Source: a virus
Strand: one strand, 5' to 3'
Virus genome (UHGV): UHGV-1820336
DNA length: 10,031 nt
Part shown: positions 1 to 10,031 of the stretch, piece by piece
Layout of the letters: the number at the start of each line of letters is the position of its first letter
Numbering within the stretch: position 1 is the first letter of the stretch
Position numbers and translations under genes: made by a program
The notes under the pieces: generated by a model
Databases searched by the model: none
Told to the model about the DNA's origin: nothing
The model's input: the letters and a program-made list of their open reading frames with translations, nothing else

Positions 1-48
1 TTAACAGCTAACTCATAGCAACTCATTCCTATTCAGATACTAATTTAA

Positions 49-76
49 CCCTCTGTTTTTACAGAGGGTTTTTGTT
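49..76 (+). terminator. Rho-independent terminator-like hairpin upstream of the integrase gene
   Basis: Seen in sequence: 8-bp stem CCCTCTGT (49-56), loop TTTT, stem ACAGAGGG (61-68), followed by TTTTTGTTTTT. Likely ends transcription coming in from the left flank. Confidence 0.5.
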
Positions 77-135
77 TTTATGTATTCATTTCTATTCACT
101 CTACACCATATTTTTCTGCGGTACAGGTGACGGTA

Positions 136-150
136 TTACCTTAAAGGTAT
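136..150. promoter_or_regulatory. Imperfect copy of the TTACC-N5-GGTAA palindrome (TTACC-TTAAA-GGTAT) upstream of the integrase gene
   Basis: Seen in sequence; 9/10 match to the palindrome found at the immunity region. Overlaps a second inverted repeat GGTAT-N6-ATACC (146-161). Function inferred only. Confidence 0.3.
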
Positions 151-192
151 ACTCTCATACCGTCATGAAAATGGTTTCTATACGGGTGAATT

Positions 193-1443
193 GTGCTTAC
201 CGATACAAAATTAAAAAACCTCAAGCCGCAGGACAAACTGTACAAGGTATCCGATCGTGACGGGCTGTATGTAGCTGTGCTTACGTCAGGCACGGTCTCG
301 TTTCGCTATGACTACCGTATCAACGGTCGCCGCGAAACACTGGTAATCGGGCAGTATGGGCGTGACGGTATCAGCCTGGCAGAAGCGCGAGAAGAACTGA
401 TTGCTGCAAAGAAGCTGCTTAAAGCAGGCCAGTCACCGGCTGCGGCTAAACGTGACGGTATCAAAAAGATTCGTGGTGCCGAGACGTTTGCGGTACATAC
501 CGACAGTTATATGAAACACGTCATCCTGGCTGACAGTACCCGCGCAATGAAGCAGGCGGTGATCGACCGTGACATACTTCCGGTTCTTGGCAACAAAATG
601 ATGGCTGAAATTACCACATCGATGGTTCGTGATTTGTGTGGCCGGATTGTCGAACGTGGTGGTCGGGCAACAGCAGTACAGGCCAGGGAGATCATCAGCA
701 GCGTATACCGTCACGCCAATGACCGTGGTCATGGTTTGTTTAATCCTGCGGCTGACATTAAACCTTCGTCTATCGCCATATTTAAACCACGAGAGCGAAC
801 ACTGACACCAGAAGAAATTGGCCTGTTCTTCCGCACGTTGGATGCCATTGGTGCTATGGGCACTATGAAAATGGCTTTAAAACTGGTGCTTATCACTATG
901 GTTCGTAAGGGCGAATTCACCAATGCAACGTGGGATGAAATAGATTTTAAAAAATGGACATGGACAATTCCTTCAGACCGCATGAAGGGAAGCCGGGCGC
1001 ATGTTATTTACCTGCCTAAACAGGCTCAGGATATATTGGTCGGGTTGCAGATGTGCGCTGGTGGAAGTGAATATCTGGTTCCTGGTCGTTACAATTTCAG
1101 GAAGCCATTATCTAATGCCGCGCTGAACTCTCTGATCGACAGAACGGTGAAAATAATAAATGAAGATGGTGAGAATATTCAGGACTTCACCGTACACGAT
1201 ATGCGCCGTACAGCCAGTACGTTGTTGCATGAGGCTGGTTATCCTTCAGACTGGATTGAAAAGGCTCTGGCACATGAGCAGAAAGGTGTGCGCGCCGTAT
1301 ATAACAAAGCGGAATACGCCAGACAGCGCGCCTACATGTTGCAGCAGTGGTCCGATATGATTGATTCCTGGATTAACGGGGAGCATACGGATCTGATTCC
1401 GTTCTCCCCGTCGAAGTTTGAGAAGTGGATGGCGGGGGAATAA
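193..1443 (+). CDS. int: Tyrosine site-specific integrase, P4/CP4-57-like
   Basis: 416-aa ORF. N-terminus (TDTKLKNLKP...YKVSDRDGLYVAV...FRYDYRINGRRETLVIGQY) is typical of the DUF4102-type integrase arm-binding domain. C-terminus has H-x-x-R (VHDMRRT) and a tyrosine in VRAVYNKAEY consistent with the catalytic motifs. Start is GTG at 193 with a weak SD; exact start uncertain. Confidence 0.9.
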   Translation: MLTDTKLKNLKPQDKLYKVSDRDGLYVAVLTSGTVSFRYDYRINGRRETLVIGQYGRDGISLAEAREELIAAKKLLKAGQSPAAAKRDGIKKIRGAETFAVHTDSYMKHVILADSTRAMKQAVIDRDILPVLGNKMMAEITTSMVRDLCGRIVERGGRATAVQAREIISSVYRHANDRGHGLFNPAADIKPSSIAIFKPRERTLTPEEIGLFFRTLDAIGAMGTMKMALKLVLITMVRKGEFTNATWDEIDFKKWTWTIPSDRMKGSRAHVIYLPKQAQDILVGLQMCAGGSEYLVPGRYNFRKPLSNAALNSLIDRTVKIINEDGENIQDFTVHDMRRTASTLLHEAGYPSDWIEKALAHEQKGVRAVYNKAEYARQRAYMLQQWSDMIDSWINGEHTDLIPFSPSKFEKWMAGE

Positions 1444-1446
1444 CGT

Positions 1447-1641
1447 TTAATAGTCCTGCTGATTTTCTTCCATCTCTGCTTCTGCTGCCAGTGATTCAAT
1501 TTTGTTTTCGAATATTGCTGACAGTGTTGCAAATTCAGCATCAGTGACAGCGGGAATTGGAACAAACCTGATCCCGCTGTGTGCAAGCATGTTTGCAGTT
1601 TCAAGGCATTTCCTTAAATCTGCTGGTGATGCCCTGTTCAT
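1447..1641 (-). CDS. Hypothetical small protein (64 aa), last gene of the leftward operon
   Basis: ATG at 1641..1639 overlaps the TGA stop of the upstream methyltransferase (ATGA overlap), implying translational coupling. No family recognised. The six-frame ORF extends further upstream, but that extension overlaps the methyltransferase. Confidence 0.5.
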   Translation of the reverse strand: MNRASPADLRKCLETANMLAHSGIRFVPIPAVTDAEFATLSAIFENKIESLAAEAEMEENQQDY

Positions 1642-2288
1642 GCTGCACGCTCCCGCCCCTGGTTGTCTGTTGGTGACAGCGGAGCATTGCTGAATGCATT
1701 TGTTAATCTGGCAATATCCAACGCGTATCCAGGGTGTAGTTGCACTGCCGGGTCTTCGCACTGATTACCCCAAACATCGAAGCCATGAGACGACTGGCGG
1801 GCGAACAGTTCAATGCGAGAAACATCGCCTAACAATTGCACAAGTTTTTCACGAACGACATCTGGTTTTCTTGAATGCTCAAGCCGCGGTGCGGTAAATG
1901 ACTGAACGATCCCTGCATTAATGCGCGTAGGTAGTTTTCCCTTAACTGCAAACAGGCAATCTTCACTATTGGCGCGAGTCATGTGCCCCATACCCATAAC
2001 CAGTTTATCTGGTTGTCGACTACCACATTTTATCCACGTGAAGCCCTTCATGGTCATCAGACGGAATCCCCAGGCTTCAACAACTTTTAGTGCTTCGAGT
2101 GGTTGTGTTGGCACCCACCACATGGCCAACAGACAGTTTTCACCGGCCAAATCCCACACAGGAAGGCGGCAGATATCCAGCACACTCATAACCGGATATT
2201 TAAAACCGGCACCGCGATTACCATCTGCGGCTTTGTCCCGGTATACCCAGGGTGGATCTGCATAGATTAGTGTGTATTTCTTAGTCAT
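1638..2288 (-). CDS. MT-A70 family N6-adenine DNA methyltransferase (orphan, phage-type)
   Basis: Protein begins MTKKYTLIYADPPW; DPPW is the catalytic motif of MT-A70/Dam-like m6A methyltransferases. ATG at 2288..2286 overlaps the stop of the upstream ORF (TTTATGACTAA). The ORF track's GTG start at 2300 is an alternative. No restriction endonuclease partner is seen in the window. Confidence 0.85.
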   Translation of the reverse strand: MTKKYTLIYADPPWVYRDKAADGNRGAGFKYPVMSVLDICRLPVWDLAGENCLLAMWWVPTQPLEALKVVEAWGFRLMTMKGFTWIKCGSRQPDKLVMGMGHMTRANSEDCLFAVKGKLPTRINAGIVQSFTAPRLEHSRKPDVVREKLVQLLGDVSRIELFARQSSHGFDVWGNQCEDPAVQLHPGYALDIARLTNAFSNAPLSPTDNQGRERAA

Positions 2289-2580
2289 AAACCACCCCAC
2301 AACATCCTATGCCGCTATAGTCGCCACGGCGAAGGCCGTTACCTTTTGTGATACATTGGTCCCTGCGAACCGCGATCCTTGCACGCTCAACATCACCAGA
2401 AGCAACATCCATACACTGAAGCCAAAGGTGGGCGGCAATGCGGAACTGCCCTTTTTTCTCTCTTTCAATCGCGCGTTTTTCGATCTCTATCGCCGCAGGA
2501 GTAACGGCAACAACCTTTGAATGGCTGCGCATTGAAACCTTGTTCATGTGATATTTTTCAAGTCGGCTTAACTTTCTCAC
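2281..2580 (-). CDS. Hypothetical protein, start uncertain
   Basis: ORF in operon context between the AlpA-like gene and the methyltransferase, with its stop overlapping the methyltransferase start. Candidate starts: GTG 2580, ATG 2547, ATG 2532 (the last has an AAGG SD-like element). No family recognised. Confidence 0.45.
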   Translation of the reverse strand: MRKLSRLEKYHMNKVSMRSHSKVVAVTPAAIEIEKRAIEREKKGQFRIAAHLWLQCMDVASGDVERARIAVRRDQCITKGNGLRRGDYSGIGCCGVVYD

Positions 2581-2689
2581 TTAATCCAACCCTCTCTGAA
2601 AATTAATGCCAGCAGATAAAGCCATGCTGAAACAGAGGCCAGGAATAAGTACCATCCTGACCATTTGCTCCAGTGCCTTAGCAGCGCAC

Positions 2690-2938
2690 TCATGCAGCGT
2701 TGCTCACAGGACGATATACACGTTGCTGAACAGGAGGTTTTTTACCCTGGAACTCTGCCGGGCTTGCTGCCTGACGTTCATCAAGCCAACGCTCAACTTC
2801 ATCACGGTTCCATGCGCAGCGTTTATCGGTGATATACCAGCGTTTAGGAAATTCCCCTGCGCGCTCCATACGGTCGATAGTGCTCCATGACAGTGGCACC
2901 ACCGCCAGGAGTTCCTTCTTACCTAATGCACCTTTCAT
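2690..2938 (-). CDS. AlpA-family DNA-binding regulator / excisionase-like protein
   Basis: 82 aa. The segment LLAVVPLSWSTIDRMERAGEFPKRWYITDKRCAWNRDEVERWL matches the architecture of the phage AlpA / Xis-type winged-helix domain. Good SD (AGAGAGG) upstream of ATG at 2938. Confidence 0.8.
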   Translation of the reverse strand: MKGALGKKELLAVVPLSWSTIDRMERAGEFPKRWYITDKRCAWNRDEVERWLDERQAASPAEFQGKKPPVQQRVYRPVSNAA

Positions 2939-2960
2939 AAATACCTCTCTTGGTTGCAGT

Positions 2961-2979
2961 GCGGCGCGCGTGGCGCCGC
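2961..2979. other. GC-rich perfect hairpin between the annealing-protein and AlpA-like genes
   Basis: Seen in sequence: GCGGCGC (2961-2967), loop GCGTG, GCGCCGC (2973-2979). No flanking T-run on either strand, so not a canonical intrinsic terminator. Confidence 0.4.
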
Positions 2980-2987
2980 GGTGGTGG

Positions 2988-3929
2988 TTACATAGATGTT
3001 TCGTTTAATTCTTCCCGACGAACGCTGTAAACGTCGGTGGCTTTTGCCAGCAGTTCGTCATCATCTGAAAGTTTTTGTGCAATGTATTTGTAAGCCTTAT
3101 CCAGTTCGGAGACAGTGCTGTAATTCATCGCTGCGCTGGTAAAGGCCATCAGCATTTCTTCTGGATCACGGCTATCCGATTTACGCGTTTGCTCATCAGG
3201 CTTTTTCGCTGGTTTAGCGTTGATCAGACTGTTCATTCCCGCAGCAGTGGTCGTTTGCGGAGTAATGTCTCGCTCAACGCGCGGTGCCGTTTCCTGTAAT
3301 TCGTCTGGGGTGTAGACGCCCATGATTACGTCAGGACAGTGCAGGCGAGACCAGCGTTTTGTCGCAAGGTATGCGAGTTGTTGTTTCGGATCACTGGCCC
3401 AAAGTGTGGAGTTTCTTACCTGTGCTTGAGACAGCATTAACTCAAGCACTCGAGGTTGATCCTCGCCCTTCATGGTTGCCCATACGCGAACACCGCAGCC
3501 TTCTTCGTCTTTTAGAGTCCAGCCTGGTGCGATATATGGATTGCCGTTTTTGGATGTTTTCTCAACAAACTTACCGATCACGCGTTCCCACGGCCCGAAC
3601 CACTCGTAGTTGATGCGATCTTTTGTTGGCGACATCGTTGAGATAACTGCGTTTACTAATTGGGCTTCATAACCTAGCGTGCCGTTCACAACATGGGTTT
3701 TCTGAGCCACGGCAAACGGGTTCATTCCCCACTGCGCAGCCTGCATTGCCACGGCCATGCAATCAGCTGGTTTCCCGGCGAGGTGCGCCGGTACCGTTAC
3801 GCGGCTTTGCGCCATTACCTCGGCGAATTTCATCAGTTGGTTCAAGCCGTCTGGGCTGAAAATAGTTGCAGCAGTTCCAGCGATTGCTGTGTCTACTGGT
3901 GCGTTGATGTTTGCGATGTCGTTGCTCAT
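2988..3929 (-). CDS. Redbeta/Bet (RecT-superfamily) single-strand annealing recombinase
   Basis: Protein from MSNDIANINAP. Shares recognisable motifs with lambda Bet as recalled from memory: NPF/NPW, W-x-S-x-PK-x-x-L...KRW, GVYTPDE versus GIYDKDE, and ERDITP. ATG at 3929 overlaps the TGA of the upstream exonuclease gene (ATGA). Confidence 0.85.
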   Translation of the reverse strand: MSNDIANINAPVDTAIAGTAATIFSPDGLNQLMKFAEVMAQSRVTVPAHLAGKPADCMAVAMQAAQWGMNPFAVAQKTHVVNGTLGYEAQLVNAVISTMSPTKDRINYEWFGPWERVIGKFVEKTSKNGNPYIAPGWTLKDEEGCGVRVWATMKGEDQPRVLELMLSQAQVRNSTLWASDPKQQLAYLATKRWSRLHCPDVIMGVYTPDELQETAPRVERDITPQTTTAAGMNSLINAKPAKKPDEQTRKSDSRDPEEMLMAFTSAAMNYSTVSELDKAYKYIAQKLSDDDELLAKATDVYSVRREELNETSM

Positions 3930-4747
3930 ATGTACATATCCTGTTTGCGTGCCCACTCAGGGCGTTTAATGATTTCCACACCGCCCCATTCATCATTGAT
4001 ACGGCATTCGTGATAGGTATTCAGATCCCGGCGGAACAGAGCGTGCCCGGCATCGACATCCTGCGCATCCAGCTCGAACACGCGTACCGGATACCGACCA
4101 CAATCAATGCTTTCGCTCACGGCAAGAAAGAAAAAACCATGCGGCTGACCAGTAACCCTCATTGCGCCTTCGCGGTACATTGCGTCCTGCACGTGGTAGC
4201 GGAATTCCTCGATGTGGCGTGCAAAACGGTCCATATCTGCAACCTTTTTCACGTCGACGATCACGTTGTGCTCGTTCAGCCATTTGTCTGGACGAATTCG
4301 GCACAACTCCCCCGTCTCTTCATCGTTCCAGTACATTGATGCTTCGCAGTAACCAGGTGCTTCCAGCATCCAGCGTGCCGCCGGGTGAGCCATTGCGCTA
4401 TCACGCATCAGCTCCAGTTTCCGCCACTGCTCGGCATCAAGTACCGTAATCCCCATATCCGCCACATCACGAAGAAATTCCTCTTCGTCAGCTTTACCTT
4501 GTTTCGTCCGACGATCGAATTTCGGTGAAACAATGAAGCGTTTGTCGAACTCTCCAGGCTCCAGAAGCAGACAGTGCAATGCGGTTCCCATATCCAGTGC
4601 AGACTTTTTCTCTTCGTCTTCTGGTGCTGCCTGAACCCATTTAAGAAGCGCCGGATTCTTGGCAACCATGTCCAGTTGCGACTTACTCACGCCGTCACCG
4701 GCGTGGTAGTCTTCGTTGCTGATGTCGAAATAAATTCCCGGTTTCAT
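3926..4747 (-). CDS. PD-(D/E)XK family recombination exonuclease, RecE C-terminal-domain-like (DUF3799-type)
   Basis: 273 aa. N-terminus MKPGIYFDISNEDYHAGDGVSKSQLDMVAKNPALLKW...LDMGTALHCLLLEP is typical of RecE-like / exodeoxyribonuclease VIII-type phage nucleases. Sits immediately upstream of, and coupled to, the annealing protein. Family assignment from memory, not searched. Confidence 0.75.
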   Translation of the reverse strand: MKPGIYFDISNEDYHAGDGVSKSQLDMVAKNPALLKWVQAAPEDEEKKSALDMGTALHCLLLEPGEFDKRFIVSPKFDRRTKQGKADEEEFLRDVADMGITVLDAEQWRKLELMRDSAMAHPAARWMLEAPGYCEASMYWNDEETGELCRIRPDKWLNEHNVIVDVKKVADMDRFARHIEEFRYHVQDAMYREGAMRVTGQPHGFFFLAVSESIDCGRYPVRVFELDAQDVDAGHALFRRDLNTYHECRINDEWGGVEIIKRPEWARKQDMYI

Positions 4748-5043
4748 GCCGCGTCCCTCTGCCCATCAAGCTGATCAGCCAGATCCCAGCGGGCGATAAT
4801 TGCCATTGCCTCGCGCCGGTAGGCATCCATTAGTTCTTCGAACTCAGGGCTGTCTTTAGCGGCCTCCAGTACTTCCTGGCGAACGCCTTTAACTGTTACA
4901 ACGTCGAAAGTTGATGCCAGTTGATGAAGCCGGATACTCTCAATCAGTTCAACTTGTCGGTCATATAGCTGTTCTGACAGACGGTAGTCCTTGTCGAATG
5001 CCAGCATGATTTTTTGAAGATTTTTCTGCTGATTAACGTTCAT
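4744..5043 (-). CDS. Hypothetical protein (99 aa) upstream of the exonuclease
   Basis: ATG at 5043..5041 preceded by GGGAGGG SD. Stop overlaps the exonuclease start (ATGA). Acidic protein, no family recognised; position suggests a possible host-nuclease inhibitor but that is speculation. Confidence 0.55.
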   Translation of the reverse strand: MNVNQQKNLQKIMLAFDKDYRLSEQLYDRQVELIESIRLHQLASTFDVVTVKGVRQEVLEAAKDSPEFEELMDAYRREAMAIIARWDLADQLDGQRDAA

Positions 5044-5045
5044 TA

Positions 5046-5198
5046 TCAGCCCTCCCATATCTCGTTATCGTTGGCCACATCGCGAGCTTCTTTGCTGACG
5101 AAAGCCCACTTAATGCCTTCCTGTAAGGTGCGGAACTTCCAGCTCATGAATCCGCATGCAGTAACGCAGTACCAACCGTTGATGATTTTCCACTGCAT
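5046..5198 (-). CDS. Small ORF (50 aa), first gene downstream of the candidate PL promoter; absent from the supplied ORF track (below length cutoff)
   Basis: ATG at 5198..5196 with GAGGTAA SD 9 nt upstream. Product MQWKIINGWYCVTACGFMSWKFRTLQEGIKWAFVSKEARDVANDNEIWEG. Stop TGA at 5048..5046, 2 nt before the next gene's ATG. Not arginine-rich, so not N-like. Confidence 0.4.
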   Translation of the reverse strand: MQWKIINGWYCVTACGFMSWKFRTLQEGIKWAFVSKEARDVANDNEIWEG

Positions 5199-5217
5199 AA
5201 CTTGTTACCTCGGTCTG

Positions 5218-5294
5218 TTACCGTTGAGGTAATAATTATGCGTATATGGTTTGATGTCAATAGATATGAGTTAAAAAAATTACCCGTTAGGTAA
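5218..5294. promoter_or_regulatory. OL-like region: two perfect operator palindromes flanking a candidate leftward promoter
   Basis: TTACC-GTTGA-GGTAA at 5218-5232 and TTACC-CGTTA-GGTAA at 5280-5294, centres 62 bp apart. Between them on the - strand is a perfect -35 TTGACA (5260..5255) and an AT-rich -10 region (around 5232-5240; hexamer assignment ambiguous). Confidence 0.6.
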
Positions 5295-5304
5295 TCGAAT
5301 AGGC

Positions 5305-5331
5305 AATAAAAAAGCCGCCATAAGGCGGCTT
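5305..5331 (-). terminator. Rho-independent terminator of the repressor gene
   Basis: Stem AAGCCGCC (5312-5319), loop ATAA, stem GGCGGCTT (5324-5331). On the - strand the hairpin is followed by TTTTTTATT. About 20 nt downstream of the repressor stop. Confidence 0.6.
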
Positions 5332-5351
5332 ACTTACTGAAAAATATGGTT

Positions 5352-5936
5352 TTATTGTTTGTTTTTTTCGTTCTGGTTGATGACAAATTCAATGTAACTT
5401 TCGATCTTTGCTTTCTCGGTTTCGGGTAACAATGCGTAGCGCGAGCGATCATAGTTGATGGTCGCAGGGTCGTGCGGGTGAATCAGTAATTCATAGCCGT
5501 GACGCCCGAATGCGGATGCAACATTCTCCAGGGTGGAAATGGAAACGCTGACCTCATTGTTTAACAGGCGGCTGATTGTCACCTGGGCTACGCCGGATGC
5601 GCGGTGAAGTTTTCCCTGTGTTGAAAGGTCGCGGCTTTCGCTCATCCAGCGTTCCAGGTTGTGAGCCGCCAGCTGGCCAATGTCGCTTGGGCCGACAGGC
5701 TGAAAACCTTCCTGAGAAAGCGAGCGATCGATATCAAGCCAGTTACGGGGTTTATTGGCGGCAGCTTCAATTTTTCGTGCAACCTGGTCGCCGATAACCT
5801 TCTTGCCAAGAGCCCAGCGGTTTACCAGATTTGCCTGAGTTCCAAGTTTTTCAGCCATCCGCGTCTGAACACCATTGAATTCACGGTCGATCAAGTCGTT
5901 GAGATTTTGCCTGCGGACGTCCTGGATACTTTTCAT
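5352..5936 (-). CDS. Phage repressor (CI-like function) with two predicted helix-turn-helix regions and no LexA/S24 peptidase domain
   Basis: 194 aa. N-terminal segment QTRMAEKLGTQANLVNRWALGKKVIGDQVARKIEAAANKPRNWLD and a second segment RASGVAQVTISRLLNNEVSVSISTLENVASAFG both resemble XRE/CI-type HTH motifs. Divergent from a Cro-like gene with operator palindromes in between. No Ala-Gly / Ser-Lys peptidase motifs recognised. Confidence 0.8.
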   Translation of the reverse strand: MKSIQDVRRQNLNDLIDREFNGVQTRMAEKLGTQANLVNRWALGKKVIGDQVARKIEAAANKPRNWLDIDRSLSQEGFQPVGPSDIGQLAAHNLERWMSESRDLSTQGKLHRASGVAQVTISRLLNNEVSVSISTLENVASAFGRHGYELLIHPHDPATINYDRSRYALLPETEKAKIESYIEFVINQNEKNKQ

Positions 5937-5991
5937 TTTCTGGAAAATCGCCTCATATATGAATCAGTAGATGATTCAATTTAAAGCAATA

Positions 5992-6054
5992 TTACCCAAC
6001 AGGTAAATGCACCCCACAGGTAACTATCCTTGATTTTTGTTACCTTATGGGTGA
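5992..6054. promoter_or_regulatory. OR-like region: three operator sites plus candidate PR
   Basis: Perfect TTACC-CAACA-GGTAA at 5992-6006. Imperfect GCACC-CCACA-GGTAA at 6009-6023 and TTACC-TTATG-GGTGA at 6040-6054. Centre spacings 17 and 31 bp. Candidate rightward promoter TTGTTA (6037-6042) -17- TATTAT (6060-6065), with an alternative -35 TTGATT at 6030-6035; the third site overlaps it. Confidence 0.6.
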
Positions 6055-6090
6055 ATATTTATTATCTGAAATAAATATCAGGCAATAGCT

Positions 6091-6321
6091 ATGAGCGATA
6101 ACGGACATTTCGATTTCAAAAAGCACTGGCTTGCACTTACTCCGGATGAGCGTGAAGCCTTCGCACAGGAAGCCGGAACGACGAGTCACTATATCCAGAC
6201 TCACTTAACAGGTAAGCGCAAAATGCCAGGTAAGGTATTGATGAATGGGCTTTTTAAAGCCTGTAAAACAAGACAATGGCTGCGCTCAAAAGCAGAATTG
6301 GCATACTTCTTCTACTCATGA
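6091..6321 (+). CDS. Cro-like small DNA-binding protein (YdaS/DUF1019-like HTH)
   Basis: 76 aa. Divergent from the repressor gene across the operator region. Segment EAFAQEAGTTSHYIQTHLTGKRKMPGKVL resembles Cro/YdaS-type HTH proteins. Weak SD. Confidence 0.65.
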   Translation: MSDNGHFDFKKHWLALTPDEREAFAQEAGTTSHYIQTHLTGKRKMPGKVLMNGLFKACKTRQWLRSKAELAYFFYS

Positions 6322-6342
6322 TATCCAGCCACAACCCTCTGT

Positions 6343-6366
6343 AGACCGCCATCCGGCGGTCTTTTC
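6343..6366 (+). terminator. Rho-independent terminator after the Cro-like gene (tR1-like position)
   Basis: Stem AGACCGCC (6343-6350), loop ATCC, stem GGCGGTCT (6355-6362), followed by TTTTCAT. Confidence 0.6.
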
Positions 6367-6376
6367 ATATCTATTC

Positions 6377-6437
6377 GTACCTCAAAGGTAATAAAAAACC
6401 AAATCTGGTTGATCTTTTTTTTGTGTCAGCACAAAAT
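6377..6437 (+). promoter_or_regulatory. Operator-like site plus candidate promoter for the zinc-ribbon / O / P genes
   Basis: GTACC-TCAAA-GGTAA at 6377-6391 (9/10). Then 17 bp to a candidate -35 TTGATC (6409-6414), 17-nt spacer, candidate -10 CAAAAT (6432-6437). Promoter call is weak. Confidence 0.35.
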
Positions 6438-6471
6438 GACCGTAATCCCAATACTAATAACAGGGCTTACC

Positions 6472-6672
6472 ATGGAAATCATTACACGTATTGATGCCGC
6501 AAAGCGCGGACTTAAACGCTACTACACCGGAAAAACATGTAAGCACGGACATGACAGTGAACGCTGGGTTTACAACGGACACTGTGTTGAGTGCACCATG
6601 GAATCAAACCGTCGTATCAGGGCAGAGATTAAGCAGATCATGATTAATTCCTCCCCACAACATTCAAGCTGA
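6472..6672 (+). CDS. Small putative zinc-binding protein (66 aa)
   Basis: MEIITRIDAAKRGLKRYYTGKTCKHGHDSERWVYNGHCVEC...: Cys/His cluster C-x-H-x-H-x10-H-C-x2-C. Occupies the position cII has in lambda but shows no similarity to cII. An in-frame ATG at 6436 is an alternative start. No clear SD. Confidence 0.5.
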   Translation: MEIITRIDAAKRGLKRYYTGKTCKHGHDSERWVYNGHCVECTMESNRRIRAEIKQIMINSSPQHSS

Positions 6673-6687
6673 TAGCGGAGATTAATC

Positions 6688-7479
6688 ATGAGCAGACATG
6701 CAACAGATTGGGCCTGGGAGACAGATCCAGGTAGCTCATCATTAAAGCTCATACTGCTCTCGATGGCTGACAGAGCCGATGAATATAACCTCTGCTACCC
6801 CAGCATAGAACGCCTCGTTAAAGACACTTGCCTGAATAAAAAAACCGTGCAGGCCGGGCTTATATCGCTCATGAAAATGGGGCTTATTTCAGATACCGGA
6901 GAGAGAAAGGGAGCGACAAAAAGAGTGCGGGTTTTCTCTCTTAATATAACCAAAAACGGGAACATTAAAGGCAACCGGGAGGGGGGCAATGAACCCGAAA
7001 ACGGGAATATACCCGAAAACGGGAATATACCCAAAAACGGGATGTTGAATGATCCCAAAAACGGGATCCAGAACCAGTCATATAACCAGTCATTTAACCA
7101 AGAGAGGGAGAGCAGGACAAAAAGCGGGGATTCTGTGCCTCATGACCCCGGAGCAAACAACGCCGTGATGAATAACTTTGTTCCTCCTGGTGGGCCAGGG
7201 CAATTAGGCAAATTTGTCATGCATGAACAATGGCAGCCATCAGATGACTTTCTTCGGAAAAGCTCATTGCAGGGGATCTACCTGGACAGTCTGCCAACGG
7301 CACAGGAACTTGCAGAGTTCAGAATTTACTGGATGGCTGAGGGTAAGGCATACCATCAGGCACAGTGGGAGCAGAAGCTGGCAAGGCGGCTGCAGATTAG
7401 CAGACAGAAGCAATCAACATTACCTGATAACAACGTTCCGCACTGGAACAGCCCTGAAGCATGGGAGGATTTCTTGTGA
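6688..7479 (+). CDS. Replication initiator, lambda O-like (N-terminal HTH DNA-binding domain; origin iterons embedded in the linker region)
   Basis: 263 aa. N-terminus WAWETDPGSSSLKLILLSMADRADEYNLCYPSIERLVKDTCLNKKTVQAGLISLMKMGLI is typical of phage replication-initiator HTH domains. Central low-complexity KNG/ENG repeat is encoded by the iterons. SD GGAG 7 nt upstream. The next gene is P-like. Confidence 0.8.
   Translation: MSRHATDWAWETDPGSSSLKLILLSMADRADEYNLCYPSIERLVKDTCLNKKTVQAGLISLMKMGLISDTGERKGATKRVRVFSLNITKNGNIKGNREGGNEPENGNIPENGNIPKNGMLNDPKNGIQNQSYNQSFNQERESRTKSGDSVPHDPGANNAVMNNFVPPGGPGQLGKFVMHEQWQPSDDFLRKSSLQGIYLDSLPTAQELAEFRIYWMAEGKAYHQAQWEQKLARRLQISRQKQSTLPDNNVPHWNSPEAWEDFL
6950..7068. 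repeat. Candidate replication origin: iterons CC(C)RAAAACGGGA, palindromic core CCCG-AAAAC-GGG
   Basis: Copies start at 6950, 6994, 7012, 7030 and 7054. 6994-7011 and 7012-7029 are an exact 18-bp tandem duplicate, CCCGAAAACGGGAATATA. Followed by a 12-bp direct repeat AACCAGTCAT(A/T)T at 7072-7095. Resembles the lambda ori iteron design (recalled as TCCCTCAAAACGAGGGA) located inside the O gene. Confidence 0.7.
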
Positions 7480-8261
7480 ACAACGTTTTTACCGCGATAC
7501 AAAACCGTGACGGAGAAGCCCTTTCTCGCATGTCAGGTTATGAGCATCAGTACGTCAACAATGACAATGTGGTGAACATGTCAGCAGAGAGGCTTGTTGA
7601 TGCCCTTTTTAAACAGCTGAAACAACTGTTTCCGGCGGCAGTGGTAACCAACCTGAAGACGCCAGAGCAGGAAGTTGCTGCAAAACAGCAGTGGATTGCT
7701 GCGTTTGCCGAAGGGGGGATCCGAACCCGTGAACAGGTTTCTGCTGGTATGCGCCACGCCCGCGCCAGTGAATCTCCGTTCTGGCCGTCTCCAGGGCAAT
7801 TTATCAAGTGGTGCAAAGACAGCAAGATGGTTCTTGGCGTCACCATTGACGATGTGATGGCGGAGTTTCACCGGTACAGCAAGGAAAAAAGTTTATATCC
7901 TGGTGGTCCCGAAAGATTCCCGTGGCGACATCCGGTTATGTACTGGGTCGTATGTGATACCCGCCGTGCAATGTATCAGCGCCAGCTTAGCGAGATTGAG
8001 GTTGAGAAACACGCACGCAGGCTGCTCGATGATTGGGCGAAAAAGGTGGCTTCCGGACAGCAGATACCCGATCCGGTGATCAGCATACAGGCAAAGCCAG
8101 AGCCCATGAGTACGCCTCCGGACACAGGGAGAGACGTTTACCATCCACCAGGGCGAAGTTTCGGGTGCATGCCTAACGCCGCCACCCTTGGGGGAATAAC
8201 ACCGGCGCAGTGGCTGATGGAGGAATACAGGCGGGGAAAGGCGGCAGGATTTATCAAGTAA
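7476..8261 (+). CDS. Replication protein P-like helicase loader
   Basis: AAFAEGGIRTREQVSAGMRHARASESPFWPSPGQFIKWCK aligns with lambda P as recalled from memory (LAFRENGITTMEQVNAGMRVARRQNRPFLPSPGQFVAWCR). Start taken as GTG 7476 (SD GGAGGA 7464-7469, overlapping the O-like stop in GTGA). The in-frame ATG at 7461 is an alternative. Confidence 0.85.
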   Translation: MNNVFTAIQNRDGEALSRMSGYEHQYVNNDNVVNMSAERLVDALFKQLKQLFPAAVVTNLKTPEQEVAAKQQWIAAFAEGGIRTREQVSAGMRHARASESPFWPSPGQFIKWCKDSKMVLGVTIDDVMAEFHRYSKEKSLYPGGPERFPWRHPVMYWVVCDTRRAMYQRQLSEIEVEKHARRLLDDWAKKVASGQQIPDPVISIQAKPEPMSTPPDTGRDVYHPPGRSFGCMPNAATLGGITPAQWLMEEYRRGKAAGFIK

Positions 8262-8264
8262 TAC

Positions 8265-8286
8265 CAGCGCGATAGCGCATTTTTTT
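8265..8286 (+). terminator. Weak terminator-like element after the P-like gene
   Basis: Short GC stem GCGC (8267-8270) / GCGC (8275-8278) with loop GATA, followed by a 7-T run (8280-8286). Stem is only 4 bp, so low confidence. Confidence 0.3.
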
Positions 8287-8298
8287 ACGCCTCGACAA

Positions 8299-8375
8299 TT
8301 ACCTGTTAGGTAATAAAATATTCTAAAATCTATTGATTTCGTGTCTTATGTGGTTTTTAATTACCTCAGAGGTAA
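8299..8375 (+). promoter_or_regulatory. Second operator pair flanking a candidate rightward promoter upstream of the DUF1064-like gene
   Basis: Perfect TTACC-TGTTA-GGTAA at 8299-8313 and TTACC-TCAGA-GGTAA at 8361-8375, centres 62 bp apart (same as the OL pair). Between them -35 TTGATT (8333-8338), 17-nt spacer, -10 TTTAAT (8356-8361). The downstream site overlaps the SD (GAGG 8369-8372) of the ATG at 8379. Confidence 0.6.
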
Positions 8376-8378
8376 ATC

Positions 8379-8723
8379 ATGAGAAAACAGATACAGGCTC
8401 TTGGTCGACTCAAAACAGGTCAGATGAACAAAACAGAATCTGCGTATTGCCAGCACCTTGAGCTGCGTAAACGTGCAGGAGAAATCGTCTGGTATCGATT
8501 TGAGGGTATCAAGCTGCGGTTAGCTGACAACACGTTCTATACGCCCGATTTTGCTGTGATGCTCGCCACCGGCGAGATGGAACTGCACGAAGTGAAAGGT
8601 TTCTGGACCGACGACGCCAGGGTGAAAACCAAAGTCGCCGCAGATCAGTATCCGTTCCGAATCATCGGGGTAACGGTTAAACCAAAGAAAGCAGGTGGTG
8701 GCTGGATCATCGAAGAGTTCTGA
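8379..8723 (+). CDS. DUF1064-like phage protein with a PD-(D/E)XK-type motif
   Basis: 114 aa. Pattern E-x2-Y-x3-LE...G-E-I...YTPDF-x-V...ELHEVKG...K-x-K...YPF matches, from memory, the conserved layout of DUF1064 phage proteins (D...E-x-K nuclease-like core). Not verified by search. Confidence 0.7.
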   Translation: MRKQIQALGRLKTGQMNKTESAYCQHLELRKRAGEIVWYRFEGIKLRLADNTFYTPDFAVMLATGEMELHEVKGFWTDDARVKTKVAADQYPFRIIGVTVKPKKAGGGWIIEEF

Positions 8724-8739
8724 ATCGACGATCTTTTTA

Positions 8740-8772
8740 GTTATCAATGTTATCAATAAGTTATGTGGATAA
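8740..8772. promoter_or_regulatory. Tandem GTTATCAAT repeats plus a perfect DnaA-box consensus (TTATCCACA on the - strand) upstream of the 8785 gene
   Basis: GTTATCAAT at 8740-8748 and 8749-8757; TGTGGATAA at 8764-8772 is the reverse complement of TTATCCACA. Immediately upstream of SD GAGGGT and ATG at 8785. Functional role inferred. Confidence 0.3.
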
Positions 8773-8784
8773 GCGAGGGTAAAG

Positions 8785-9195
8785 ATGGAAAGTAATATCA
8801 AATGGTTAGTTGCCGCCGGGCATGAGATGGCTTCGGAACTGAAAGCAGAATGTGGTGCCGTTGATATGCGCAGTGTGGCAAAGCTGATCAGCGATTTGGC
8901 AACGCAACTGGAAGTGCAACTGGCGCGGATTGCGCTGGCCTCGCTTGAGGCAGAGCCAGTTGGTGCATTCCACATTGCTGAACAGCAAGTTGACGGCACA
9001 AGTGACTATCTCAAGGATGGAGAATGGCCTATTGATAATGGGATTATTGAAGTCTACGCCGCTCCGCCAGCACCGGTAGTGCCAGATGATTGGCAACTCG
9101 TACCTAAGAAAATAACACTGGAAATGGAATGTGCTCTATCAAAAGCTGATAGCTATGAAATTGGTTGGCTATGGGCATTGGCAGGCCGCACCTAA
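8785..9195 (+). CDS. Hypothetical protein (136 aa), paralogous to the N-terminal part of the following gene
   Basis: Shares LARIALA(S/A)LE(A/V)EP(V/I)G and (V/I)YAAPPAPVVP(D/E)(D/E) with the ORF starting at 9279. SD GAGGGT upstream. No family recognised. Confidence 0.6.
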   Translation: MESNIKWLVAAGHEMASELKAECGAVDMRSVAKLISDLATQLEVQLARIALASLEAEPVGAFHIAEQQVDGTSDYLKDGEWPIDNGIIEVYAAPPAPVVPDDWQLVPKKITLEMECALSKADSYEIGWLWALAGRT

Positions 9196-9278
9196 ATACG
9201 AAGTACAGAACGCTAAACGCGTGCAAAACGCGCTTAACGCCTGCCGCGCCGCCATGCTTCAGGGTAAAGGAGAGTGAT

Positions 9279-10031
9279 ATGACCACTATAACCAAAGATC
9301 GACTACTGACAATCAAGCAGTGGCGCGAAACATACGGACCTGGTGGCAACGTTGTACTGCCAGCAGAAGAAGCGGAAGAACTGGCACGAATTGCTCTGGC
9401 AGCGCTGGAAGTCGAGCCGATAGGTTTCCGTTGCAGGCGCAATGATAACCTTGGTGATTGGAGTTACGTATATCATCGAGAGCCAGATGATTTTGAGCGC
9501 AAACATTTAGTGATAGAGGGTATTTACGCCGCCCCTCCAGCGCCAGTAGTACCGGAAGAAAAACCAATGCCTAATCCTCTTAGCATGTACGCGGTCGATG
9601 CTGTTGCCGCTATTGCAGAGGTGAGAGGCTGGAACGCCTGCCGCGCCGCCATGCTTCATAGTGCCGAACCTGCAAGTAATCATGAAGAGTTGCCGCTTGA
9701 TTATCTCCAAGGTCAAAAAGATGGTCTTGAATGGGCTGCGCAGCTTGCAGAAGCAAATCACCCACAAACTGGCGACTGGCTTTACGATGACCCGCTGGAG
9801 CTGGCTAAAGCTATCAGAAAAGGTCCTGACATGCCCGAATTCGATGGACCAACTCCGGTAACTCAGGATAGTTGGATAAGCTGTAGTGAGAGAATGCCGG
9901 AAGACACCAAAATGTTACTGGCATTTAGTCAAGGTGAAATCGTGGCCGCATATTGGAACTGGGTTGTAAATCCAATTGATTACAAAAAATATAGAGCTTT
10001 CACGTATTTATCAGGAAATATCTTGGATGAC
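9279..10031 (+). CDS. Hypothetical phage protein, 3'-partial (runs off the window end); N-terminal module paralogous to the 8785 gene, C-terminal region possibly DUF551-like
   Basis: Open frame from ATG 9279 (SD AGGAGA 9268-9273) to the window end with no stop by my manual translation; not in the ORF track, presumably because it lacks a stop. C-terminal WISCSERMPEDTKMLLAF resembles the W-I-S-x-x-(D/E)-R-L/M-P-E motif I associate with DUF551 phage proteins (tentative). Confidence 0.65.
   Translation, partial: MTTITKDRLLTIKQWRETYGPGGNVVLPAEEAEELARIALAALEVEPIGFRCRRNDNLGDWSYVYHREPDDFERKHLVIEGIYAAPPAPVVPEEKPMPNPLSMYAVDAVAAIAEVRGWNACRAAMLHSAEPASNHEELPLDYLQGQKDGLEWAAQLAEANHPQTGDWLYDDPLELAKAIRKGPDMPEFDGPTPVTQDSWISCSERMPEDTKMLLAFSQGEIVAAYWNWVVNPIDYKKYRAFTYLSGNILDD

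Follow-up and report, generated by a model that had tools for sequence, protein, structure and literature searches.

The mosaic Ea22, ead and EaA genes of lambdoid and P22-like phages, which lie in the exo-xis or 'ea' region, are non-essential, early-operon genes built from blocks, in which a conserved N-terminal or coiled-coil part is combined with unrelated, portable C-terminal domains such as DUF551 (PMC10834534). Both the mosaicism of the Ea22 genes and the portability of DUF551 are set out by Goddard et al. (PMC10834534), who give the block structure at the protein level and do not mention the NACRAAML linker discussed below. Our search of the literature for this motif, and for modularity of DUF551 and DUF550, also returned no description of the NACRAAML linker. 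The formation of mosaics on short or diverged homology is driven by recombinases of the RecT type (PMC3945230), with a minimal efficient pairing segment of 23-27 bp for Red-beta as opposed to 31-34 bp for RecA (De Paepe et al. 2014, PMC3945230). The locus examined here fits within this picture: we put at roughly 0.85 the probability that it consists of mosaic accessory genes joined at a conserved linker, the first of which has been frameshifted by one G, and that it represents ordinary phage mosaicism plus a small lesion. Gene 1, as we call the affected gene, is a frameshifted member of an already known mosaic phage accessory family, and no new mechanism is involved.

The DNA that we analyzed (the window, 10,031 nt in its entirety) is taken from a metagenome assembly contig (ENA ERZ501981 NODE_726) of 10,220 nt with a k-mer coverage of about 1.75x, and spans the left and early regions of a lambdoid (lambda-like) prophage of E. 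coli. Its gene order is int, MT-A70 methylase, RecT, PD-(D/E)XK (DUF3799) exonuclease, HTH repressor and cro, with an O-like DnaT/HTH_36 gene, lambda P, DUF1064, gene 1 (8785-9195) and gene 2 (from 9279) further downstream. In its present form gene 1 is a 136-aa ORF on the + strand that ends in ...WALAGRT*, and the source contig has a gene call for it. Gene 2 (9279-10031, + strand), which is cut by the end of the window, encodes a modular protein of more than 251 aa with a C-terminal DUF551. Predictions for the region around the two genes gave no terminator, no + strand promoter and no tRNA, and because there is neither such a promoter nor a terminator around them we read genes 1 and 2 as part of one operon. 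The nearest prophage is that of E. coli MS 198-1 (L210), which is 99.3% identical across window 1-8800. The sole indel between the two over these 8.8 kb is one of 6 nt, in frame, which sits at window 7026-7030 in the O-like (DnaT/HTH_36) replication gene.

Both genes are associated with copies of a 26-bp sequence, AACGCCTGCCGCGCCGCCATGCTTCA, present without mismatch on the + strand at 9236-9261 and 9633-9658. Further copies with up to three mismatches are not found in the window, and none of 200 dinucleotide shuffles contained any match. The exact repeat is at most 26 bases long, since the flanking bases differ at once when the two copies are compared. Copy 2 (9633-9658) encodes NACRAAML in the frame of gene 2, its first base lying 354 nt from the gene 2 start (9633-9279 = 354), and is placed, in the context W-NACRAAML-H, where the N-terminal modules of the protein give way to its C-terminal part. 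Copy 1 (9236-9261) begins 41 nt past the TAA of gene 1 (9193-9195), and here NACRAAML is read in the +1 frame relative to the present ORF of gene 1; this frame closes at a TGA at 9275-9277. The preliminary description of this DNA had reported an exact 26-bp repeat at these two positions that encodes one peptide in different frames, and both the sequence and its translation agree with that claim. It had also described the +1 frame as open from 9194 to the TGA at 9275-9277, of which the end is right and the start is not, this frame being open already from 9116, behind a TAA at 9113-9115. The +1 frame is therefore open for 53 codons and overlaps the final 80 nt of gene 1, as is expected from an internal frameshift.

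Homologs of gene 1 were sought by a BLAST search of positions 8950-9300 against 5,426 complete E. coli genomes. Many matches to 9066-9262 were obtained at 96-99.5% identity, and every close one is 1 nt shorter than the query. When the segments from the MLI109 chromosome (L001), a 1296KP plasmid (L002) and an O157:H7 plasmid (L003), three independent homologs from E. coli, are aligned with the window over 197 columns (alignment A1), the single difference is GGCAGGCCGC in the window against GGCAGCCGC in all three homologs. This 1-nt insertion at 9184-9185 on the + strand, GG where homologs have a single G, puts gene 1 out of frame. The three homologous segments lie, in one frame, inside intact ORFs of 348 aa (L001), 157 aa (L002) and 461 aa (L003) that read ...WALAAAPKYEVQNAKRVQNALNACRA(A/D)MLQ..., the O157:H7 plasmid having NACRADML, and the C-terminal module of gene 1 is likewise in frame in the database proteins P0003, P0006, P0024 and P0030. 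Deletion of one G at 9184/9185 yields an ORF of 492 nt, encoding 163 aa plus a stop, that ends in ...NACRAAMLQGKGE* at the TGA at 9275-9277. The putative ancestral coding sequence for the gene 1 C-terminus (9186-9277, + strand) now stands in the +1 frame, where it reads AAPKYEVQNAKRVQNALNACRAAMLQGKGE*. The same tail peptide is in frame in L002, L001, L003 and P0003, and a 137-aa gene of MS 198-1 (gene A) ends with exactly the NACRAAMLQGKGE* tail. Moreover, window 9236-9293, a segment that spans the 26-mer, the stop and the first 15 bases of the next gene, is identical to L210 3799-3856 at 58/58 bases. In addition, position 124 of PHROG 5117 (125 positions) aligns to residue 161 of repaired gene 1, and in gene 2 this PHROG aligns to residue 128, in both genes just beyond the motif. 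Taken together, the single-frame homologs, the repaired ORF, the MS 198-1 tail and PHROG 5117 indicate that the out-of-frame motif is the displaced C-terminus of gene 1.

The suspicion voiced in the preliminary description, that the first gene is frameshifted and was once longer, is thus supported by the homologs without the extra G and by the 163-aa repaired ORF; alignment to homologs answers in the affirmative the question of whether this gene is normally longer, with no homolog stopping at 9193. The full module combination of the repaired 163-aa sequence is present in no database protein, the best other match being 61% identical, so that the ancestor is reconstructed rather than observed. 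We propose that gene 1 was formerly a 163-aa short-form member of its family, whose stop codon was separated from the gene 2 start by one base, and that a single G inserted at 9184/9185 shifted the final 30 codons, and with them the linker, to the +1 frame and created the premature TAA at 9193-9195, leaving the 136-aa product. Gene 2 is intact, with a ribosome-binding site of its own, and there is no recoding. At the junction (9267-9281, + strand), a Shine-Dalgarno-like AAGGAG (9267-9272) lies inside the ancestral end of gene 1 and is followed by the TGA (9275-9277) and the ATG of gene 2 (9279-9281); this GTGATATG stop/start arrangement is common to the window, L002 and L210.

Three readings of the extra G need to be weighed. 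The preliminary description had raised ribosomal frameshifting, by which gene 1 would yield both the 136-aa product and, through a programmed +1 shift, a longer one that regains the NACRAAML tail. The conserved peptide is indeed encoded in a +1 frame that is open for 53 codons, but homologs (L001-L003, P0003, P0006, P0024, P0030) have the tail in the 0 frame and lack the extra G, the stretch around 9180-9195 (codons GCA GGC CGC ACC TAA at the site) contains no slippery motif, and shuffled sequence folds as well as the local RNA (z = -0.04), for which Rfam has no match. Since all homologs examined are single-frame, the two-frame layout is not conserved. With homologs that need no frameshifting, a site that is not slippery and a fold z of -0.04, the proposal is not borne out, and we regard it as extremely improbable. 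A much less remote reading, though still an unlikely one, treats the locus as an artefact: either the G is an error in a low-coverage contig and gene 1 is an intact 163-aa gene, or the gene order reflects a chimeric path through repeats of co-resident prophages. Consistent with this reading are the coverage of about 1.75x, as given by the cov value in the contig name, the absence of the 28-mer spanning the insertion from all 5,426 complete E. coli genomes and of the insertion from every close match, the fact that the best public record covers no more than 57-66% of the region, and the finding of the truncated gene 1 protein in databases only from this prophage. Nevertheless, a second assembly of this prophage (ERZ28628966 scaffold_714; NIEL14-1_SAMEA1968151; L223), which may derive from the same sample and reads, also carries the GG and agrees in module order as far as 9402, where it ends. 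Aligned to window 786-9402, this scaffold differs by two SNPs (6360 T>G and 8923 G>T, the latter giving A47S in gene 1) and carries a run of N at 8040-8051 that marks a scaffold gap. The 6-nt in-frame difference from the 99.3% identical relative is, moreover, the only other indel of the window in 8.8 kb, with no frameshifting indels there, and insertions of one base are rare in Illumina data. Frameshifts caused by a single base are also common in this gene pool, as seen in the DUF551 gene of MS 198-1 and in the roughly 4% of motif sites that look disrupted. On balance, the extra G is probably a real mutation.

Genes 1 and 2 belong to a very large and hypervariable pool of accessory genes annotated as EaA, ead/Ea22-like, DUF551 or DUF550. 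Both match the EaA-type PHROGs 60, 5117, 660, 3323 and 12449 (E values from 6e-41 to 6e-6), and the matches of gene 1 include PHROGs 492, 250, 60, 5117 and 660; all of these PHROGs are of unknown function. DUF551 (PF04448) scores above the gathering threshold in gene 2 (E = 3.1e-9; 38 bits against a cutoff of 22), where it aligns to aa 198-243, or 9870-10007, and is cut by the window end; gene 1, truncated or repaired, has no match to this domain. Gene 1 has no match in Pfam at all, and searches of NCBIfam and PADLOC were empty for both genes. Neither gene matches Ead/Ea22 (PF13935, IPR025153; NCBIfam 'ead/Ea22-like'), even at E values of up to 10 or 1, and PF13935 is present in only some of the homologs that share modules with them, P0033 being one example. 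An in-frame (W)NACRAAML within a long ORF is found in gene 2 as it stands and in gene 1 only once the extra G is removed. An AlphaFold2 model of P0003 built on a 45-sequence alignment (pLDDT 54, pTM 0.23) was too poor to use.

Gene 2 is 98.3% identical to a gene in E. coli EF5-18-41 (L224 2501-3292) that lies within a P22-type early-left 'ea' region, between anti-RecBCD and ead/Ea22-like genes on one side and Eag/TorI on the other. Because gene 2 is located beyond the replication genes here and in the 'ea' region in EF5-18-41, such genes appear to move between operons as well. Near the end of gene 2, the window has A6 at 9985-9990 where MS 198-1 (L210 about 4300-4404) has A5, and the DUF551 gene of that relative is frameshifted; RefSeq gives it as two CDS. 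The frame of the window past A6 runs into the usual ...THWMPLPEPP end.

The two genes were initially said to have an N-terminal module in common. They do share a module, which is not at the extreme N-terminus: aa 45-100 of gene 1 correspond to aa 34-92 of gene 2 (42% identity, E = 6e-10), and the first 44 residues of gene 1 and the first 33 of gene 2 are unrelated to each other. The limits of this module are the motifs LARIALA(S/A)LE(A/V)EP and YAAPPAPVVP. The former (J1) is found on the + strand at 8920-8958 in gene 1 (LARIALASLEAEP) and at 9381-9419 in gene 2 (LARIALAALEVEP). The latter (J2), also on the + strand, is YAAPPAPVVP in both genes, at 9055-9089 in gene 1, where identity to the module of L001-L003 begins, and at 9525-9559 in gene 2, where the DNA is 80% identical to the gene 1 copy. 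Gene 1 is itself a patchwork. Positions 8700-8940 are 97% identical to the start of a 187-aa MS 198-1 gene as far as the ARIALA motif, the middle matches the common Eaa protein P0088 up to PAPVVP, and 9066-9262 matches the L001-L003 module; P0003, for its part, combines the N-terminal half of gene 2 with the C-terminal module of gene 1. The module shuffling that had been claimed for this locus is accordingly upheld, with gene 1 drawn from three sources that meet at conserved motifs and with the 26-mer serving as a junction across the family.

Exact copies of the 26-mer are present in at least 120 IMG/VR contigs and in 11 species-representative genomes from Enterobacter, Leclercia, Citrobacter and Intestinirhabdus. 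Cultured phages with the sequence include Salmonella phages g341c and 29485, Enterobacter phages, Stx1a phages, cdtI, mEp043 and mEp213, and also the P1-like P7 and SJ46, so that its spread spans phages of E. coli, Salmonella and Enterobacter and takes in lambdoid, P22-like and P7/SJ46 types. The phage genes that contain it are annotated EaA, DUF551 or hypothetical, mostly EaA or DUF551. One outcome contemplated at the outset was that the repeat would prove to be a widespread, generic GC-rich motif; it is widespread, but it is a specific coding linker, always in one frame, rather than generic. Column conservation, at 1.0 in the 26-mer, is down to background (0.3-0.5) about 6 nt or less beyond either edge, and the 60-nt flanks of 118 sites include 78 distinct left and 82 distinct right sequences. 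A degenerate scan for any DNA that encodes WNACRAAML gave 82 sites among the 80 loci listed, in 37 variants when compared across 29 nt (the nine WNACRAAML codons and the next two bases). The exact consensus is present at 23 of these 82 sites, and most of the others are one or two bases off. The consensus carries the uncommon Leu codon CTT, and its uniformity is far above what codon usage predicts; the CTT suggests that this uniformity stems from shared descent and not from codon preference. Upstream of the motif, the in-frame ORF has a median length of 128 codons (206 sites). On these comparisons, the 26-mer represents the DNA consensus for a linker that is read in frame in the EaA / Ea22-like / DUF551 accessory-protein pool. 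Other linker copies (L095, L169 and L080 in IMG/VR) lack a proper start, are preceded by fewer than 80 open codons and look like further frameshifted or truncated members of the family; such sites make up about 4% of the 206. Special selection on the 26-mer at the DNA level was considered and dropped: third-position diversity in the linker (0.26) matches that in other family motifs (0.18-0.33; unselected sample), its synonymous sites thus being no more conserved than theirs, and we therefore claim none.

Similarity between members of the pool tends to end at the linker. For 234 of the 395 pairs of sites with at least 100 nt of similar left flank, similarity breaks off no more than 15 nt beyond the right edge of the motif, and in 205 of these pairs no more than 5 nt beyond it; 193 of 266 pairs that share a right flank lose it within 15 nt to the left. 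Clustering of the flanks of 210 sites gave 93 left and 113 right clusters in 150 combinations, including 15 four-gamete rectangles, and 23 left clusters have two or more right partners, with a maximum of 14. The 26-mer is therefore a short stretch of conserved DNA with unrelated and reassorted flanks and with breakpoints at its edges, which are the features of a module boundary. On the window sequence itself, BLAST boundaries fall at 9236, 9279 and 9658; among the phage records listed, more than 20 have a match to 9279-9658 that ends with the final base of copy 2, and for two the match starts there. Since the motif stands in one phase within long ORFs, exchange at this point keeps the reading frame. 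The interval from DUF1064 to the DUF551 gene of MS 198-1 (L210 724-4404) is about 2.7 kb longer than window 8785-10031, the extra stretch comprising seven added small genes, one of them an ead/Ea22-like fragment, and similarity to the window restarts past it exactly at the 26-mer. The DUF1064-DUF551 region is a hypervariable cassette array, even among prophages that are otherwise 99% identical.

In the reading that these observations favor, the proteins of the pool are strings of unrelated modules, with LARIALASLEAEP, YAAPPAPVVP and (W)NACRAAML(Q) as the joints, and the repeat amounts to the consensus DNA of the third motif occurring once in each tandem gene. As the breakpoints suggest, the linker and its sister motifs may offer short stretches of identity through which genes with no other relationship recombine homologously into in-frame chimeras. 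The likely agents would be phage Rad52-like/RecT recombinases, which need only about 23-27 bp of identity; a pair of RecT and a PDDEXK nuclease is encoded in the window.

An alternative origin for the repeat is a recent local duplication, or gene conversion, between the tandem genes. The 26-bp copies are 100% identical, and the other motifs common to both genes are only about 80% identical in DNA, as this alternative would have it. The 26-mer is, however, the family consensus, and the consensus form accounts for 28-33% of the sites that encode the peptide in an unselected sample, so that two consensus copies side by side are unremarkable. Identity between the copies ends at the motif edges, and their closest relatives differ, copy 1 being closest to L210 3799-3856 and copy 2 to EF5-18-41 and Stx1a phages. 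Because the 26-mer is a widespread coding linker, exact identity of the two copies is no proof of recent local duplication, and we consider such an event improbable. We give slightly more credence, though we still think it doubtful, to the idea that the NACRAAML 26-35-mer and its sister motifs constitute a selected, phase-preserving signal for cassette exchange, sized to the minimal pairing length of RecT/Red-beta. If this idea were true, it would mean in-frame swaps of effector domains among lambdoid, P22-like and P1/P7-like phages in several enterobacterial genera, and hence a domain-level shuffling system for a protein family engaged in an arms race.

Under the reading that we prefer, mosaic genes joined at a linker with one G too many in the first, gene 1 should be annotated as a frameshifted copy, or as a copy with a miscalled base, of a 163-aa short-form EaA-type gene, and the 26-bp repeat should not be counted as a sign of local duplication or recoding. 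The motif is a handy marker for a huge pool of accessory proteins of unknown function, with more than 5,700 matches out of 8,000 scored candidates, and the breakpoint statistics provide a concrete and testable case of in-frame domain exchange at a homology patch of 26-35 bp. Automatic pipelines often mis-annotate the mosaic ORFs of this pool as partial pseudogenes. PGAP, for example, calls the intact mosaic ORFs at L001 1256-2302, L002 1238-1711 and L003 1219-2439 (348, 157 and about 400 aa) 'incomplete; partial in the middle of a contig', and these calls of short pseudogene fragments look like an annotation artefact of module-shuffled proteins.

Compared with the systems already described, the locus resembles the Ea22/ead/EaA genes in that homologs of both window genes are annotated EaA, Ea22, ead/Ea22-like or DUF551. 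It differs from them in position, the window genes following the replication genes on the PR / nin side instead of lying between exo and xis, and its genes are without a Pfam Ead_Ea22 match. The 26-35 bp of the linker are close to the 23-27 bp segment of Red-beta in relaxed, Rad52-like recombination (PMC3945230), and RecT and an exonuclease are encoded in the same prophage. With the boundary or linker sequences of the modular theory of phages it shares a short conserved stretch with unrelated flanks at a point of module exchange. Classical boundary sequences, those associated with Susskind and Botstein in 1978 and with Clark et al. in 2001 on HK620, are said to lie mostly between genes. The NACRAAML linker, in contrast, lies inside coding sequence and preserves phase, and for that reason recombination at the linker would swap protein domains rather than genes. 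Finally, gene 1 is like the frameshift pseudogenes of prophage accessory regions, dispensable genes that are cut short by an indel of one base while the start of the next gene is left in place; MS 198-1, the closest relative, has a comparable lesion in its DUF551 gene. The only departure of gene 1 from the ordinary case is that the displaced tail carries the most recognisable motif of the family.
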